A DNA stretch of 64,000 bases from an uncultured Solirubrobacteraceae bacterium (GTDB taxonomy: Bacteria > Actinomycetota > Thermoleophilia > Solirubrobacterales > Solirubrobacteraceae), in the NCBI GenBank assembly GCA_963782925.1, contig CAWALH010000002.1:14106-78105 (forward strand), read 5' to 3'. How positions within the stretch are numbered: position 1 is the stretch's first letter; every line of letters begins with the position of its first letter. Below, in pieces: positions 55,364-61,876 of the stretch. The notes under the pieces were generated by a model that made no database searches, had not been told where the DNA came from, and saw nothing but the letters and a program-made list of their open reading frames with translations. A program made the translations under genes and the position numbers.

Positions 55364-56896
55364 ATGCTCGACGGTCTTGGCTCCCGTGCCGCGGCGGCCG
55401 CGCTCGCAGGCGTCGTCGGTTACGACCTGCTGCAGCGCCGTCACGCGATCCTGCGCAACTTCCCGATCATCGGGCACTTTCGCTACGCGCTCGAGGCGTT
55501 CGGGCCCGAGCTGCGCCAGTACATCGTCACGTCGAACAACGAGGAGCGCCCGTTCTCGCGCGATCAGCGGCGCTGGGTGTACGCGTCGTCAGAGGGCAAA
55601 CCGAACGTCTTCGGGTTCGGCACCGACGACGAGATGGAGGCCGTCGAGAGCCTGCTGATCATCAAGCACTCGCCGTTCCCCGCGCCCGCGCCGGCCGCCG
55701 GCGAGCCGGGCGGGCCGCCGAGCTTCGAGATCGCCGCCGCCAAGGTCCTCGGCGCGAGCCACCGGCGGCGGCACGCGTTCCGCCCGGCCTCGGTCGTCAA
55801 CCTCTCGGCGATGAGCTACGGCTCGCTCTCGCCCGTCGCCGTCGAGGCGCTGAACCGCGGCGCGGATCTCGCGGGCTGCCTGCAGAACACCGGCGAGGGC
55901 GGCCTCGCGCCGGCGCACTGCCGCGGCGGCGAGCTGATCTTCCAGATCGGCACCGGCTACTTCGGCTGCCGCGACTCCGACGGGCGCTTCAGCCTCGAGC
56001 GCCTGCGCGAGCGCGTCGCGCAGGCGCCGGTGCGCGCGATCGAGATCAAGCTCTCCCAAGGCGCGAAGCCGGGCCTCGGCGGACTGCTGCCCGCGGTCAA
56101 GGTCACGCCCGAGATCGCCGCGATCCGCTGCGTCGCCGCCGGCGAGGACTGCGTCAGCCCGCCGGCGCACTCGGCGTTCTCGGACGTCGACGGGCTGATC
56201 GAGTTCGTCGAGCTGATCGCGGCCGACACCGGTCTGCCGGTCGGCGTCAAGTCGGCCGTCGGCGAGAGCGGCTTCTGGCAGACGCTCGCCGAGCGCATGG
56301 CGGCGACGGGCGCCGGACCGGACTTCATCACCGTCGACGGCGGCGAGGGCGGCACCGGCGCCGCGCCGCTGTCGTTCGCCGACCACGTCGCGCTGCCGTT
56401 CAAGCTCGGCTTCGCGCACGTCTACCGCACGTTCGCCCACGCCGGCCTGGCCGAGGACGTCGTGTTCATCGGCGCCGGGCGGCTCGGGTTCCCCGACTCC
56501 GCGCTGTTCGCGTTCGCGCTCGGCTGCGACATGATCAACGTCGGCCGTGAGGCGATGCTCGCGATCGGCTGCATCCAGGCCCAGCGCTGTCACACCGGCC
56601 GCTGCCCGACCGGCATCGCGACGCAGTCGCGCTGGCTGATGCACGGCCTCGATCCGCGGCTGAAGTCGACGCGCGCCGCGAACTACCTCGTCGCGTTGCG
56701 CGCCGAGCTGCTCGCGCTCGCGCGCTCGTGCGGCGTCGAGCACCCCGCGCTCGTGACGCCCGAGCACATCGAGATCGTGACCGAGCGCTTCGGCTCGGCG
56801 CCGCTGACGGACGTGTTCGGGTACGAGCCCGGCTGGCCGGTGCTCTCGGCCGCGCGGCGCGCGGAGGTCGAGCGCCTCGGGGATTCGGTCCTCTAG
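55364..56896 (+). CDS. FMN-binding glutamate synthase family protein
   Basis: SAMSYGSLS, NTGEGG, EIKLSQGAKPG, DGGEGGTGAAP, CIQAQRCHTGRCPTG. Confidence 0.92.
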   Translation: MLDGLGSRAAAAALAGVVGYDLLQRRHAILRNFPIIGHFRYALEAFGPELRQYIVTSNNEERPFSRDQRRWVYASSEGKPNVFGFGTDDEMEAVESLLIIKHSPFPAPAPAAGEPGGPPSFEIAAAKVLGASHRRRHAFRPASVVNLSAMSYGSLSPVAVEALNRGADLAGCLQNTGEGGLAPAHCRGGELIFQIGTGYFGCRDSDGRFSLERLRERVAQAPVRAIEIKLSQGAKPGLGGLLPAVKVTPEIAAIRCVAAGEDCVSPPAHSAFSDVDGLIEFVELIAADTGLPVGVKSAVGESGFWQTLAERMAATGAGPDFITVDGGEGGTGAAPLSFADHVALPFKLGFAHVYRTFAHAGLAEDVVFIGAGRLGFPDSALFAFALGCDMINVGREAMLAIGCIQAQRCHTGRCPTGIATQSRWLMHGLDPRLKSTRAANYLVALRAELLALARSCGVEHPALVTPEHIEIVTERFGSAPLTDVFGYEPGWPVLSAARRAEVERLGDSVL

Positions 56897-56901
56897 CCGG
56901 C

Positions 56902-56920
56902 GATCCGTCCGTCGCGTCGC
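56902..56920 (+). repeat. Direct repeat, left copy, bounding the five-gene cassette
   Basis: GATCCGTCCGTCGCGTCGC, identical to 61858-61876. Confidence 0.85.
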
Positions 56921-56952: not shown

Positions 56953-57249
56953 TCAGGCGCCGCCGCCCGCCAGGCCGGGGATCAGCGCGAGCTCGTCGTC
57001 CGGCCCGAGCTCGACCGGCGTCACGCCGCGCCGAACGACCTCGCCGTTGACCACGAGGATGAAGCCGGGGGCCACCGTTCCACCGCTCGCGAGCACGCGA
57101 TCGGCGAGCTCGGGAAAGCGCGTGCGCAGCTCCTCGACGGTGTGCGACCACGAGCAGGCCGCGAGCTCAATCGTGTTGCGGCTCACGCGTGTCGCGCCGT
57201 CGTCGTGCGGCAGCAGGGCGAGCAGCGGCGTGGCGAGCTTCAGCTTCAT
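56953..57249 (-). CDS. ThiS/MoaD family ubiquitin-like carrier with C-terminal GG-GA
   Basis: LRTRFPELADRV, ILVVNGE, LGPDDELALIPGLAGGGA. Confidence 0.85.
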   Translation of the reverse strand: MKLKLATPLLALLPHDDGATRVSRNTIELAACSWSHTVEELRTRFPELADRVLASGGTVAPGFILVVNGEVVRRGVTPVELGPDDELALIPGLAGGGA

Positions 57250-58163
57250 CCGAGCTCACCCCGCTCGCGCGCGTCGCGCGCCAGCCGGAAGCCGAGGTCG
57301 CCGGCCCAGAACGCGGGCGGCTCGTGCAGGCGGTAGTGCGTCCGGCACATCTCGGCCAGCGAATGGACGCTGCCGCCGCGTGTGACCCGGTCCGCCGGGC
57401 GCGACTGCTCGTCATCGACGTTGACCGGATCGACGACGGGCGAGCGCGCGTAGTAGTCCTGGTCGTAGCAGTCGCCGCACCACTCCCAGACGTTCCCGTG
57501 CATGTCGAACAGCCCGAACGCGTTCGGCTCTCGTGCGCCGGCCTCGTGGATCTCGCCCCCCGCGTTCTCGCTGAACCACGCGTACGCGGGCAGATCGGCC
57601 TCGTCGCCACAGCACCACTCGCCTGCCGATCCGGCTCCACAGGCGAGCTCCCACTCGGCCTCGGTCGGCAGGCGACAACCCATCCACATCGCAAACAGCG
57701 TCGCCTCGTACCACGAGACGTCGACGACCGGCTTCGATGCGTCGGGCGAAGACGGCTCGAGGACGTCGCCGCGAAACAGCTCGAACAGCCCGTTCACGAC
57801 GGCGCGCTCGGACAGGAGGAACGGCGAGACCTCGACCGCGTGCCGCGGCGCCTCTCCGCAGAAGTGGCGCCGGCGACTCCAATCGCTGCCCATCTCGAAG
57901 CGGCCGCCGGGGATCTGGCGCATCAGCGGTTGGACGTAGCGCTCGTAGCGCTCCTCGCTGCCGTGCAGGAGGCCCGCGTGCAGAAGCCCGTCGGTCGCCT
58001 CGGCGTGCCCGCTTCGGCGCAGCTGCTCGATCGCGCGCACCAGACGCGCAGCGTCACCGCGCGACGGTCGGCCGCGACGACCGGGCGCGAGCATCTCGCG
58101 GGGATCGACGAGCGCCGTCTCGGGCGGCGCGGCGAACGTGAGCTGCGAGCGCTCGACGCTCAC
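57246..58163 (-). CDS. FGE-sulfatase (SUMF1/EgtB/PvdO) fold protein
   Basis: FEMGS, PVVDVSW, RLPTEAEWE, NAFGLFDMHGNVWEW, RGGS, GFR; GTGA/ATGA coupling to neighbours. Confidence 0.9.
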   Translation of the reverse strand: MSVERSQLTFAAPPETALVDPREMLAPGRRGRPSRGDAARLVRAIEQLRRSGHAEATDGLLHAGLLHGSEERYERYVQPLMRQIPGGRFEMGSDWSRRRHFCGEAPRHAVEVSPFLLSERAVVNGLFELFRGDVLEPSSPDASKPVVDVSWYEATLFAMWMGCRLPTEAEWELACGAGSAGEWCCGDEADLPAYAWFSENAGGEIHEAGAREPNAFGLFDMHGNVWEWCGDCYDQDYYARSPVVDPVNVDDEQSRPADRVTRGGSVHSLAEMCRTHYRLHEPPAFWAGDLGFRLARDARERGELG

Positions 58164-58663
58164 CGCGCGGCCCCCGCGATCACGTCGAGGCGCAGCTCCC
58201 GCGTGCCTTGCGTCGAGACGTCGAACGCTCGCACCTGCGGCAGCTCCGGGTTGCGCATCGAGACGATCATGTGCCACAACGAGGTGAAGCGGCTGACGTG
58301 CATCTCGTAGTCGATCTGCGAGAAGTTCGCCGGATGTCGCTGATGGCTGTGGAAGACGCCGACCTCGAACCGGCCCGCCGCCCAGATCTCCTGCTGCAGG
58401 CGCCACGCCTCCTCGGGCGCCGCGACGAACCCGGCGTCGTCGTGGTCGACGAAGTACTGGCCGTACGCGTGGAACTCCCCCTGCCAGTCCGGCGTGTTGC
58501 GAACGTTCTGACCGAACGTCACGAGATCGGTCGGCGTGCGCGCGTCGACGTCCGAGACGAGATAGCCGAACGTCTTCTCGGGGAAGCGGCTGCGCACGGT
58601 CTCGACGAGGCGATCGAGCAGACCGTCGGAGATCACGATCGGCGCGTCGGCGGGCGAGCTCAC
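58160..58663 (-). CDS. JAB/MPN (Mov34) metalloprotease
   Basis: JAMM motif FHSHQRHPANFSQID (HxH-x7-S-x2-D); IVS...PQVRAF. Confidence 0.85.
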   Translation of the reverse strand: MSSPADAPIVISDGLLDRLVETVRSRFPEKTFGYLVSDVDARTPTDLVTFGQNVRNTPDWQGEFHAYGQYFVDHDDAGFVAAPEEAWRLQQEIWAAGRFEVGVFHSHQRHPANFSQIDYEMHVSRFTSLWHMIVSMRNPELPQVRAFDVSTQGTRELRLDVIAGAAR

Positions 58664-60330
58664 ACGTCGCCCCCTCCGGCGAGATGTGAGCCGGCTGGTC
58701 CGAAGCGCGCCGAGAAGCGCGAGGGATGCGAGGCGACGGCGATACCCCGACGGCCGTCGCGCGCGAGCCTGTCGAGCAGCTTGAACACGGTCTCGACCTC
58801 CTCGGGACGGCCGATGCCCTCGGCGATCGCGTCGGCCGTCTGGGGCTCGTCGAGTTGCGCGACGAACGCCGTGATCGCGCGCTGGAGCTCGACGACCGGC
58901 CGCGCCGCGTCCTTCGCGACGCTCGGCTGGTGATAGGCGTTGACGTCGATCAACTCGGCGTAGATCCCGACGGCTCGCTCGAACAGGGCGATCAGCGCTC
59001 CGAGCGACCTCTCACGTACGCTGCGAAGCCCGATCGTGACCGACGCCCGGCCGGCCGCGTGGAGCGCGTTGCGCGTTCCCTCGGCGTAGCCGAACAGGAA
59101 GTCGCCCAACGTCAGGCCGGGCTCGACCTCGATCCCCGCCGCGCGGCGATCCTCCTCGACGCGCACGAACGTGACGAACGAGTCCGGCGCGCCCTCGAAC
59201 AGCTGCTGGAAGTACGCATGCTGATCGCAGGACCCGCGGCCGCCGTAGACCGTGAGCCCCTGCTGCACGACCGCCCCGCCGCGGTCGACCCGCTTGCCGA
59301 GCGACTCCATCACGAGCTGCTGGACGTAGCGGACCAGTCCGGCGAGCCTGTCCTTGTAGGGGACGAGCACCATGTCCCGCTCCCCGCGCCCGCGTCCGAG
59401 CGCGTGCCACGCCAGCGCAAGCAGCAATGCGGGGTTGCCGCACGGGTCGCGCTCGCGCGTGGCGCAGTCCATCGCTCGCGCGCCGGCGAGCAGCTCACCG
59501 ACGTCGGCTCCCTGCAGGGCGGCCGGCAGCAGGCCGACCGCGCTGGTCGCCGACGTGCGCCCGCCGACCCACTCCCACATCGGGAAGCGCTTCAGCCACC
59601 CCCGCTCGCGCGCAAGCGCATCGAGCTGCGAGTCGGCGATCGTCGTCGCGACCGCATGTCGATCGAAGTCGAGCCCGGCGCGTCGATAGGCCGACTCGAG
59701 CTCGCGCATGCCGTGAAGCGGAGTCGGCGTCCAACCCGACTTCGACACGACCGACGTCAGCGTCCGCCCGAGCGCCCCGTCGAGCCGCGCGAGCGTCCGG
59801 TCGATCCCGTCGGGGTCGGCGTTGTCGACGAAGTGGACGGCGATCGGATCGTCCGCGTGCGCCAGCGCCTCGCAGATCAGCTGCGCTCCGGTCGCCGACC
59901 CGCCGACGCCGACGTGCAGGACGTGCTCGAAGCGCCCGTCCGCTCCACACACCTCGCCCGCGTGGACCCTCGCGGCGAACGCGGCGACGCCGTCGCGTGC
60001 GGCGTTCAGTTCGTCGCGAATCGGCGCGCTCGGCGCGAGCTCCGGCGCGCGCAGCCAGTAGTGCCCCACCATCCGCCGCTCGTCGAGATTCGCGATCGCG
60101 CCCGCCTCGAGCGCCGCCATCGCGTCGATCGCGCGCGCGGCGTCCGGCGCGAGCTCCTCCAGCGAGCGCCGATCGAAGCCGACGCGGCTGCAATCGAGCG
60201 ACAGTCCGACCTCCGGGACGTCGATGCACAGCTCGCGGTAGCGCCGCCAGAGCAAGCCGGTCGTCGAGACAGGCGAACGGGTCGCGCCGTCGGGGTTCTC
60301 GACGATGTTCTCCGGCGCCGTCGCGCTCAT
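58660..60330 (-). CDS. pgi: Glucose-6-phosphate isomerase-family protein (cyanobacterial/plastid-like subtype, divergent)
   Basis: DERRMVGHYWLR, GGRTS, QQLVMESLGK, DQHAY, NAYHQP; several motif substitutions. Confidence 0.8.
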   Translation of the reverse strand: MSATAPENIVENPDGATRSPVSTTGLLWRRYRELCIDVPEVGLSLDCSRVGFDRRSLEELAPDAARAIDAMAALEAGAIANLDERRMVGHYWLRAPELAPSAPIRDELNAARDGVAAFAARVHAGEVCGADGRFEHVLHVGVGGSATGAQLICEALAHADDPIAVHFVDNADPDGIDRTLARLDGALGRTLTSVVSKSGWTPTPLHGMRELESAYRRAGLDFDRHAVATTIADSQLDALARERGWLKRFPMWEWVGGRTSATSAVGLLPAALQGADVGELLAGARAMDCATRERDPCGNPALLLALAWHALGRGRGERDMVLVPYKDRLAGLVRYVQQLVMESLGKRVDRGGAVVQQGLTVYGGRGSCDQHAYFQQLFEGAPDSFVTFVRVEEDRRAAGIEVEPGLTLGDFLFGYAEGTRNALHAAGRASVTIGLRSVRERSLGALIALFERAVGIYAELIDVNAYHQPSVAKDAARPVVELQRAITAFVAQLDEPQTADAIAEGIGRPEEVETVFKLLDRLARDGRRGIAVASHPSRFSARFGPAGSHLAGGGDV

Positions 60331-60418
60331 CCGAGCCGTGGAATATATCTAAAGGATGGATTTTGCGTCTTTCGCGACGACCCGGCGCCCGGCGCGCGAC
60401 GAAACGCGCCGGTAGACG

Positions 60419-61852
60419 ATGAACGGCCTGCTCGTCTGCTCGCACCGCGGCCCGGTCTCGCTCGCGCGGGCTCGCACGGGGCTCGAGGCGACCAGCGCCG
60501 GCCCCGGCGGGCTCGTTGCCGTCGTCGCGCCGGCGATCGAACGACTGGGCGGCACATGGGTGTTCGCGCCCGGCTCGGCCGAGGAGCACGCGATCGCCGC
60601 GCAGGGCATCGAGCTCGAGCGGGGCGGCGTGCGCTACGTCGTGCTCGACCTTCCCGAGGGCCCGCACGAGACCGCCTACCGGACGATCTACACCGAACTG
60701 CTCGTTCCGCTGTTCCACTACCTCCTGTCGCTGGAGTACGAGCCGACGTTCTCGGACCGCCTGCATGATGCCTGGGAGGACTACCGGCTGGTCAACGGCG
60801 TCTACGGCGCCGCGATTCGCGAGCGCGCCACCGGCGCGGGCGTGCTCGTCGAGGACGCACATCTGATGCTCGCCGCCGCGGCCGCGCGACGGGAGCCCGG
60901 CGGCGCGGACGTCCCGCTGGCCTACTTCCACCACATGCCCTGGTGCGAGCCCGAGTACTTCGCGGTGCTGCCCGACGAGCTGCGTACGGAGATCCTCGCC
61001 GGGATGCTCGCGTTCGACTCGGTCGGGTTCCACACCGCTCGCTGGGCGGACGCGTTCGCCTCGTGCTGCGAGCGCTTCCTCGGAGCCGATCGCGAGTCCC
61101 GGGATCGGCTTCGGTGGCGGGGCCGCTCCGTCGGGCTGCTCGCCTCCCCCGCGGCGCTCGACGCCGAGCGCCTCGCCGCTCGCGCCGCCGACCCGCCGAC
61201 CGCCGCCTGGCGCGAGCGTCTGCGCGGAGCCTGCGAGCAGCGGCGGGCGATCGTGCGCGTGGAGCGTCTCGATCCGGCCAAGAACCTGATCCGCAGCCTT
61301 CAGGCGTACGAGCAGCTTCTCTCGCGGCGGCCCGACCTGCTGGAGAGCGCCTGCCTGCTCTGCGTGCTCACGCCGGTCCGCGAGTGGGCGCCGGCGTACC
61401 GGCGCTATCGCGAGCTCGCCGAAGCCGAGGCGGCCCGGATCAATGAGCGCTTTGCGGCAGCGCGGGCGGACCGCGCGCCCGTGCGCCTGCACCTGTCGCC
61501 CGATCCGCACGTGTTCGACCACCATCGCGCGCTCGCCGGCATGTCGATCGCAGACGTCGTGCTTGCGACGCCGGTCTTCGACGGCCTGAACATCGTGCCG
61601 CTGGAGGCGGCGATCGTCGGCGAGCCTTCGGTCGTGCTGTCGCGCAACGCCGGCGCATACGCCTACTTCGCCGAGCACGTGAGATCGGTCAACCCGTTCG
61701 ACGCGCTGGAGACCGCCGACGCGATCGAGCAGGCGATCGATGAGCCGGCGGTCGAACGGCGCCGGCGGGCGGGCGCATTGCGCGCCGCCGTCGCTGCGCG
61801 CACGCCAGAGGACTGGGTGCGCGAGCGGATCGCGGCCGCCGGCCGTGCCTGA
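60419..61852 (+). CDS. GT20 glycosyltransferase (trehalose-6-phosphate synthase-like, divergent)
   Basis: SHRGP, GGLV, PLFHY, WEDYRLVN, FHHMPW, ERLDPAKN, FDGLNIV, VNPFD. Confidence 0.85.
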   Translation: MNGLLVCSHRGPVSLARARTGLEATSAGPGGLVAVVAPAIERLGGTWVFAPGSAEEHAIAAQGIELERGGVRYVVLDLPEGPHETAYRTIYTELLVPLFHYLLSLEYEPTFSDRLHDAWEDYRLVNGVYGAAIRERATGAGVLVEDAHLMLAAAAARREPGGADVPLAYFHHMPWCEPEYFAVLPDELRTEILAGMLAFDSVGFHTARWADAFASCCERFLGADRESRDRLRWRGRSVGLLASPAALDAERLAARAADPPTAAWRERLRGACEQRRAIVRVERLDPAKNLIRSLQAYEQLLSRRPDLLESACLLCVLTPVREWAPAYRRYRELAEAEAARINERFAAARADRAPVRLHLSPDPHVFDHHRALAGMSIADVVLATPVFDGLNIVPLEAAIVGEPSVVLSRNAGAYAYFAEHVRSVNPFDALETADAIEQAIDEPAVERRRRAGALRAAVAARTPEDWVRERIAAAGRA

Positions 61853-61857
61853 CGGAG

Positions 61858-61876
61858 GATCCGTCCGTCGCGTCGC
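61858..61876 (+). repeat. Direct repeat, right copy
   Basis: GATCCGTCCGTCGCGTCGC, identical to 56902-56920. Confidence 0.85.

Follow-up and report, generated by a model that had tools for sequence, protein, structure and literature searches.

A rare, mobile JAB–FGE–ubiquitin-like cassette in an uncultured Solirubrobacteraceae bacterium, with a proposed role in thiosugar biosynthesis

In chuangxinmycin biosynthesis, CxnF (Cxm3) and its carrier CxnE convert an α-keto acid to a thione (PMC12087186), and ThnF of the thienodolin pathway has been reconstituted with a carrier and MoeZ (bioRxiv 2025.12.11.692455); for these and all other publications cited here, our statements refer to the available parts of their text. 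Natural sugars with sulfur in the ring are very rare; those named in a 2025 review are 5-thio-D-mannose, glucosinolate-type thioglycosides and the salacinol type (PMC12073459). 5-Thio-trehalose (5-ThioTre) has been made chemoenzymatically as a trehalose analogue and acts as an inhibitor of trehalase and of trehalose use by bacteria (PMC12077775, PMC9964334), with no natural source in the literature searched. Here we describe a five-gene cassette in a 64,000-nucleotide stretch (the window) of contig CAWALH010000002.1, from the assembly GCA_963782925.1 of an uncultured Solirubrobacteraceae bacterium. The cassette is a real, rare and mobile biosynthetic unit, built on a module of a JAB protein with lysine at its catalytic position, an FGE-fold protein and a ubiquitin-like (Ubl) carrier; no JAB, FGE and Ubl cluster and no 5-thiosugar pathway was found in the literature searched, which was largely without subscription journals, including those of chemistry. 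The cassette quite probably makes some thiosugar or thio-trehalose. Our most far-reaching reading, to which we give somewhat less than an even chance, is that the core is an undescribed portable module making 2-thio-glyceraldehyde-3-phosphate (2-thio-G3P), which is then run through duplicated enzymes of gluconeogenesis and the pentose phosphate pathway.

The cassette comprises the following features:

56953-57249, minus strand: Ubl gene for a ThiS/MoaD/SAMP-type sulfur carrier (98 amino acids; Pfam ThiS)
57246-58163, minus strand: FGE-sulfatase-fold gene (305 amino acids; Pfam FGE-sulfatase)
58160-58663, minus strand: JAB/JAMM-fold gene, a proposed sulfurtransferase (167 amino acids; Pfam Prok-JAB)
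58660-60330, minus strand: PGI-like gene for a variant phosphoglucose isomerase (PGI) of the plastid/cyanobacterial type (556 amino acids; Pfam PGI)
60331-60418, no strand: 88-bp divergent intergenic gap with an AT-rich stretch, the presumed promoter region
60419-61852, plus strand: GT20 gene for an OtsA-like glycosyltransferase (477 amino acids; Pfam Glyco_transf_20)

The five open reading frames, the overlaps of four bases each between the minus-strand genes (GTGA, GTGA and ATGA) and the 88-bp gap had been described in an earlier sequence-only reading, and all were confirmed in the sequence. That reading had also reported no E1/ThiF, phosphatase, regulator or transporter gene in the cassette, and a scan between the flanking glutamate-synthase-domain and helicase genes likewise found none. 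None of the five proteins reached an NCBIfam equivalog cut-off, and the ThiS match of the Ubl protein (20.4 bits) lies slightly below the Pfam cut-off of 22.5.

The JAB family, a tight one with 134 homologs among 199 candidates, supplied the alignment that was used to retrieve 109 loci (39 from genomes and 70 from metagenomes, many on short contigs). Core genes were counted by tblastn and hidden Markov model searches; a codon-model gene caller missed core genes in several frameshifted loci. The loci span Actinomycetota, Acidobacteriota, Bacillota, Planctomycetota, Proteobacteria and Ktedonobacterales, and include FGE in 97 cases, Ubl in 83 by profile search, PGI in 45 and GT20 in just 8, which does not agree with the earlier view of the five genes as a conserved unit. 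After removal of near-duplicates (107 to 83 loci), 33 had at least 4 kb on each side; all of these well-flanked loci carry FGE, 16 PGI, 13 an aldolase (11 whole or frameshifted, 2 fragments), 7 ThiF/MoeZ, 4 GT20, 4 GalT, 3 TreT and 3 FkbH. In 53 of 107 loci, JAB and FGE are encoded as a single reading frame, and the best 120 matches listed for a JAB–FGE fusion profile were all of fusion length. Thus the conserved core is JAB, FGE and Ubl, with PGI and GT20 as exchangeable downstream genes. Relatives of all five families cluster across several phyla, the co-occurrence that the sequence-only reading had named as a check, and because the same families recur together in this way the arrangement is not due to chance. 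Complete clusters are present in the culturable Lentzea jiangxiensis CGMCC 4.6609, Saccharothrix sp. NRRL B-16348, Salinispora pacifica CNR114 and Anaerocolumna xylanovorans DSM 12503. No relatives were found in the viral contigs or plasmids searched, and no solved structure combining JAB and FGE was found. In a search of sequencing runs, no RNA run and one DNA run, with a small share, were listed. The words 'isomerase', 'aldolase' and 'sugar' do not occur in the available part of Iyer 2006 (PMC1779556). Scans of neighbouring genes covered 177 of 324 neighbour representatives, to which all statements on scanned neighbours below refer.

The model of the cassette JAB protein (predicted local distance difference test, pLDDT, 93.6) has the JAMM fold, with 2kks and JAMM1 5ld9 as top structural matches (Z 16.6, root-mean-square deviation 1.9, 128 aligned). 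Its zinc ligands H105, H107 and D118 are kept and are invariant among homologs. The catalytic Glu of the JAMM motif (E-xn-H-S/T-H-x7-S-x2-D) is absent: K30 aligns with the catalytic Glu of 2kks (LPNEACG), and Lys occupies this position in 231 of 240 homologs (8 were unmatched and 1 has Asn), a change that the sequence-only reading did not mention. Residues K30, R55, D76, E85, R109, H110, H122, H131 and R137 are invariant across loci that are PGI-linked (25), linked to other sugar genes (6) or in non-sugar contexts (13); because the site does not vary with context, it suggests a pocket for one phosphorylated small-molecule substrate.

These observations bear on the earlier proposal that JAB is a protease trimming a blocked carrier and that the PGI-fold protein is a ThiG- or BexX-like enzyme inserting the sulfur. 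The window Ubl does end in LAGGGA and one close relative's Ubl in GGGA, and the PGI variant retains a Lys near the sugar, as this proposal would have it. Among 84 aligned carrier rows, however, 73 end in a free GG and 5 have short tails, including the window lineage; most carriers are not blocked, and the short tail is a lineage-specific feature. With its catalytic Glu lost and most carriers already ending in GG, JAB is not a standard protease, and the pairing of a JAB protease with a blocked carrier does not hold up on these two counts. PGI as the sulfur-inserting enzyme was rejected as well, since 17 of the 33 well-flanked loci keep JAB and FGE in its absence. We therefore regard the combined proposal as very improbable. 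The dedicated Ubl and available MoeZ/ThiF that mark deubiquitinase-like (DUB-like) sulfurtransferases both accompany the cassette JAB, and it likely works as CxnF-type sulfurtransferases do, a parallel drawn from their description and not a placement in that family by sequence; by this analogy, JAB with its FGE partner likely acts as a sulfurtransferase and not as a protease. A full JAB profile scan gave 410 representatives, 92 of them at 1e-10, including more distant Lys-type FGE fusions. We also observed an FGE-less sister group of Lys-type JAB proteins (P0391, P0394, P0395 and P0396) of 224-265 amino acids, similar in length to CxnF and with an HxHRRQPANF motif; a search for its context in 401 genomes of one actinomycete genus gave only two already-known loci.

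A complex was predicted from the JAB–FGE fusion of locus L074, zinc and the Ubl of the same locus, rather than from the window's own proteins. It scored 0.79, against 0.01 for the best of three controls, and passed a mark that 116 of 157 solved complexes attain, as opposed to 2 of 215 mismatched pairs, a pass that may echo the solved JAMM1–SAMP2 complex. Runs agree in at least 88% of contacts, the partner pLDDT is at least 70, and Ubl residues 87-93, its last seven, are modelled as touching JAB residues beside the zinc ligands. In locus L014 (2260-2657), the Ubl frame does not stop at GG but runs on into the first part of an adenine phosphoribosyltransferase (APRT), where the contig ends.

The FGE protein has an EMCR motif with a single conserved Cys. 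The first copper Cys is absent (GGSVHSLAEMC versus GGSYLCHDSYC) and only the second is present, and a copper formylglycine-generating enzyme was ruled out for want of two active-site Cys. FGE-sulfatase is the only Pfam domain, with no DinB domain. Its candidate roles are a tautomerase half, a thiol holder or a substrate-binding lid.

The variant PGI of the cassette scores 651.5 bits against a PRK14096 cut-off of 671. When aligned to the plastid PGI 7e76, it keeps the catalytic Glu (QQLxMES), His (DQH) and Arg (GGR); Glu and His are kept in all 28 locus-linked sequences, and Arg in 27. TPET has become TPTP, and the helix before the C-terminal Lys is shorter by two residues; in every one of the 28 locus-linked sequences, the SKSGGTPET loop has TPT and the QPGVEAGK helix has become QPxVxK. 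Among the best 120 PGI matches, 90 have both changes and 28 neither, with 2 intermediate or unreadable, and the 92 non-canonical sequences form one clade (support 0.97) with no canonical member inside. We take the lost loop Glu to be the partner of the catalytic His. In PGI, His and Lys act in sugar ring opening and Glu in isomerisation (PMC9436075); the cassette changes flank the His/Lys ring-opening site, and the Glu base is kept.

The GT20 protein, with OtsA 5lqd as its closest solved structure, scores 221 bits against a TIGR02400 cut-off of 565. Its donor-side motifs SxRGP, RxDxxKN and DGxN..E are kept. In the LW..HY and DYH motifs, Trp and Tyr, presumably acceptor-side residues, are lost in all eight GT20 loci. 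The host also encodes an OtsA that keeps both of these motifs and a second PGI with the canonical loop; since it holds these housekeeping enzymes, the cassette PGI and GT20 are extra paralogs, and their conserved active-site changes mark them, at the sequence level, as dedicated and specialised. Loci L026-L028 and L071 combine PGI, JAB–FGE, Ubl, an aldolase and TreT, most of them adding HAD, which is also carried by two OtsA-type loci. The trehalose link thus recurs independently, with the unrelated trehalose synthase TreT replacing OtsA in other loci.

Partner genes also bear on the position of the sulfur. Aldolases of three unrelated families occur in the loci (FbaB-type 8, class II fructose-bisphosphate aldolase (FBA) 2, glycolytic class I 1) and in both main branches of the JAB–FGE tree, and in each of the four genomes checked for a cassette FbaB, which is thus an extra copy, a class II FBA is encoded at another place. 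The binomial chance of the aldolase linkage is ~1e-15, a figure that is indicative only, as it takes account neither of kinship nor of the tendency of glycolytic genes to cluster. Other partners are a transketolase with an AraD 4-epimerase (L030), FkbH (L034, L035 and L037), and, in L068 (160-3478), a phosphoribosyl pyrophosphate (PRPP) synthetase and an RpiA with DGAGE for DGADE, which follow JAB, FGE and Ubl and make this locus a candidate 4-thio-PRPP or 4'-thionucleotide pathway. Enzymes that add carbon to glyceraldehyde-3-phosphate (G3P) are thus recurrent partners. C2 of G3P becomes C5 of hexoses and C4 of pentoses, the ring heteroatom position in both. No conserved reductase or aminotransferase was found among the scanned neighbours. 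The partner genes suggest that sulfur is inserted at the triose-phosphate level, giving ring-sulfur sugars; a single product, 2-thio-G3P, would explain the partner contexts, the lack of a conserved reductase and the altered ring-opening site of PGI.

We propose that the host Mec-like JAB trims the window Ubl tail and that host MoeZ turns the Ubl C-terminus into a thiocarboxylate; both host genes are present, and both activities are putative. The tail would enter the JAB zinc site, as in the L074 model, where the thiocarboxylate may put sulfur in place of the carbonyl oxygen at C2 of a triose phosphate (dihydroxyacetone phosphate, or G3P via a K30 imine), the same exchange that CxnF performs on an α-keto acid, with FGE as the putative second half of the JAB enzyme. 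The thione would then tautomerise to 2-thio-G3P with no redox change; no reductase would be needed, because an α-hydroxy thioketone can tautomerise to a mercapto-aldehyde. An aldolase and a phosphatase, or the host transaldolase, could extend 2-thio-G3P to 5-thio-fructose-6-phosphate, for which many related cassettes bring their own aldolase and the window cassette would borrow a host enzyme. The variant PGI would convert this product to 5-thio-glucose-6-phosphate. Addition of NDP-glucose would be the work of the variant OtsA, and the release of 5-thio-trehalose would fall to OtsB of the host or to a HAD enzyme. We give slightly under half of our confidence to this triose route through 5-thio-glucose-6-phosphate to 5-thio-trehalose. 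In other genomes the same core may feed 4-thio-pentoses and nucleotides, amino-thiosugars and thio-C3 acyl units.

Another scheme needs no aldolase, as the five window genes suffice for it. The same core would attack the C2 ketone of fructose-6-phosphate (or ribulose-5-phosphate), and a variant PGI or RpiA would tautomerise the thione, giving 2-thio-glucose-6-phosphate, the BexX product by another route, from which OtsA would make 2-thio-trehalose. BexX itself makes a 2-thiosugar from glucose-6-phosphate (PMC4784017), PGI is the commonest exchangeable partner, aldolases are absent from OtsA-type loci, and in L068 RpiA would take the part of PGI. This scheme, however, leaves no role for three independently recruited aldolases, for transketolase with AraD or for FkbH, and PGI is missing from more than half of the well-flanked loci. 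Moreover, the JAB site stays the same whether the context is hexose, pentose or non-sugar, and in PGI the changes fall on the ring-opening side and leave intact the residues that act at C1/C2. A 2-thio product, by the BexX analogy raised in the sequence-only reading, survives as an unlikely second choice.

Several points weigh against sulfur insertion at the triose level. Each chemical step is deduced from residues and gene context. The host assembly (81.8% complete) yielded no FBA, and the extension step therefore rests on the host transaldolase or an unassembled gene; the OtsA-type well-flanked loci (L007, L010, L011 and L046) and the window have no aldolase. Aldolase and PGI may cluster simply as glycolytic genes, the pentose-type contexts are each a single locus, and RpiA with PRPP synthetase, like PGI, fits attack on a ketose-phosphate C2 equally well, giving 2-thiosugars. 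With respect to the enzyme itself, CxnF is described with the full JAMM motif including Glu (PMC5925218), no FGE residue is among the confident Ubl contacts of the L074 model, the fusion in that model is partly of low confidence, and the trimming of the window's GGGA tail by a host JAB is putative.

A different alternative, partly overlapping our total for thiosugars, keeps sulfur (or selenium) transfer as the task of the core but changes its substrate or chemistry: the target could, for example, be 3-phosphohydroxypyruvate or an intermediate that has been aminated or oxidised, or FGE could mediate C-S coupling, and the sugar enzymes would supply a precursor or glycosylate the product. The substrates of CxnF and ThnF are α-keto acids, FGE domains occur in EgtB, SenA and OvoA, and some loci have PALP, ATP-grasp, acyl carrier protein (ACP) and adenylation enzymes and no sugar enzymes. 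Nevertheless, neither a conserved reductase or aminotransferase nor SelD was found among the scanned neighbours, the core lacks the DinB metal domain that EgtB and SenA have, and a PGI that supplied a precursor would not need conserved active-site changes; we consider this alternative quite unlikely. The selenium version put forward in the sequence-only reading was rejected, as no SelD was found among the scanned neighbours; of the extra partners that it had named, ThiF/MoeZ (in the 7 well-flanked loci) and HAD were found.

Non-sugar and mixed contexts were also observed. Five acidobacterial and gammaproteobacterial loci (L021, L023, L029, L089 and L093) contain Ubl, JAB–FGE, a CBS-like PALP enzyme, one or two ATP-grasp ligases and a histidine phosphatase. 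A conserved protein of ~345 amino acids with no Pfam or PADLOC match (L031:11823-12875, also L030, L032, L038, L042, L043 and L108) mostly adjoins an ACP next to the core. The Micromonospora locus L030 (1309-13640) holds two JAB–FGE pairs. One is accompanied by Ubl, an ACP-fused unknown protein, an amino acid-ACP ligase, ATP-grasp and MFS; AraD and a split transketolase go with the other. In Salinispora pacifica CNR114 (L025:10001-17122), the core stands with an FbaB aldolase, a GMC oxidoreductase, a DegT aminotransferase and HAD, with no PGI; the candidate product is an amino-thiosugar. In L044, L065, L077, L055/L056 and L040, the core lies inside polysaccharide clusters (bacterial sugar transferase, UDP-glucose dehydrogenase, GT4, ThiF-GT2 fusion), where thiosugars in surface glycans are a possible outcome.

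The cassette is bounded by an exact direct repeat, which the sequence-only reading did not mention:

56902-56920, plus strand: 19-bp direct repeat, left copy
61858-61876, plus strand: 19-bp direct repeat, right copy, equal to the native helicase-upstream sequence in congeners

Such a repeat is expected 0.09 times per shuffled window, and the whole 3.5-Mb assembly has only these two exact copies. The genes flanking the cassette occur unlinked from each other in congeners, the cassette has no long match in any of 18 same-genus genomes, and its JAB was found in 1 of 300 genomes of the family. Because it is repeat-bounded with a native right copy, its flanks are unlinked and it is this rare among relatives, the cassette is an accessory insertion. 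Its closest named relative is a Solirubrobacterales metagenome-assembled genome (87% JAB identity). No integrase or transposase was found near it, and the repeat pair suggests insertion with target duplication and possible excision. A stand-alone FMN-type glutamate synthase domain gene lies at 55364-56896 of the window; some congeners carry it elsewhere.

A patchy, horizontally moved cassette between direct repeats would also suit a Ubl protein-conjugation or anti-phage module (Bil/Bub/CBASS-like) that stands beside sugar genes by accident, the alternative named in the sequence-only reading. JAB with Ubl, with or without E1, is a defence toolkit, and FGE domains occur in conflict systems, which counts for this possibility. 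PADLOC, however, gave no match for the five proteins, no E2 was found in the scanned neighbours, the E1 partner in L008 is a ThiS-ThiF-rhodanese sulfur-relay fusion, and the partners are operonic metabolic enzymes. A defence module was rejected on the PADLOC and E2 results, and we regard this alternative as very improbable. The sequence-only reading fared better with its other proposal, a sulfur-carrier-dependent sugar or trehalose pathway using a host E1, which is supported by the wide co-occurrence of the families, by TreT replacing OtsA, by the host's MoeZ, OtsB and Mec-like JAB, and by the lack of support for defence. The host also encodes a transaldolase. Its MoeZ gene adjoins that of a CysO-like carrier, and the Mec-like JAB, which is of the Glu type, has a CysM-like gene next to it. 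These two pairs lie ~9 kb apart (C2:576533-588463; L116, L001), with an apparent transposase-like ORF between them.

If our preferred reading is correct, the module would link central metabolism enzymatically to 5-thio-hexoses and 4-thio-pentoses, useful mimics that resist glycosidases. It would offer a general means of biosynthesis for 5-thiosugars, which have so far been familiar chiefly as synthetic glycomimetics and as the sponge 5-thio-D-mannose. It would be a natural source of 5-thio-trehalose, so far a synthetic trehalase inhibitor, and also of 5-thioglucose, amino-thiosugars, NDP-thiosugars for glycans and 4'-thionucleotides. It would further define a new catalytic class of the JAB fold, with Lys replacing Glu, and a free-standing family of the FGE fold would gain a function. 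As 5-thio-trehalose is known to inhibit trehalase, a role as a degradation-resistant solute or an antagonist can be envisaged, as speculation.

Among known systems, CxnF and ThnF share with the cassette, by the available descriptions, a JAB/MPN protein, a Ubl carrier, host MoeZ and the proposed carbonyl-to-thione insertion. The cassette differs in its Lys for the JAMM Glu, in a near-obligatory and often fused FGE partner, in the lack of a conserved reductase, and in partners that are central-carbon sugar enzymes and not tryptophan enzymes. The BE-7585A cluster reportedly includes an OtsA-like glycosyltransferase. There, as proposed here, the sulfur of a sugar phosphate comes from a thiocarboxylated carrier working with host MoeZ (PMC4784017, PMC5925218); in contrast to BexX, the cassette has no ThiG homolog or polyketide genes (among the five genes and scanned neighbours, ThiG gave only a weak cross-match on NanE), has a dedicated carrier, and is predicted to place sulfur at ring C5 rather than C2. 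Mec/CysO/CysM and QbsD/QbsE likewise set a JAB fold with zinc ligands beside a ThiS/MoaD-type Ubl, whereas in the cassette the catalytic Glu is absent and carriers are mostly unblocked, and the host has its own canonical Mec-like JAB. EgtB, SenA and OvoA resemble the JAB–FGE pair as C-S/C-Se enzymes with an N-terminal metal-binding domain fused to an FGE-fold domain; in the cassette the metal domain is JAB and not DinB, and scores fall far below the cut-offs (EgtB 99.6 versus 360 bits; SenA 73.5 versus 420 bits). Finally, the GT20 protein shares its fold and donor-side residues with OtsA and VldE, and differs from them in its altered acceptor-side motifs.

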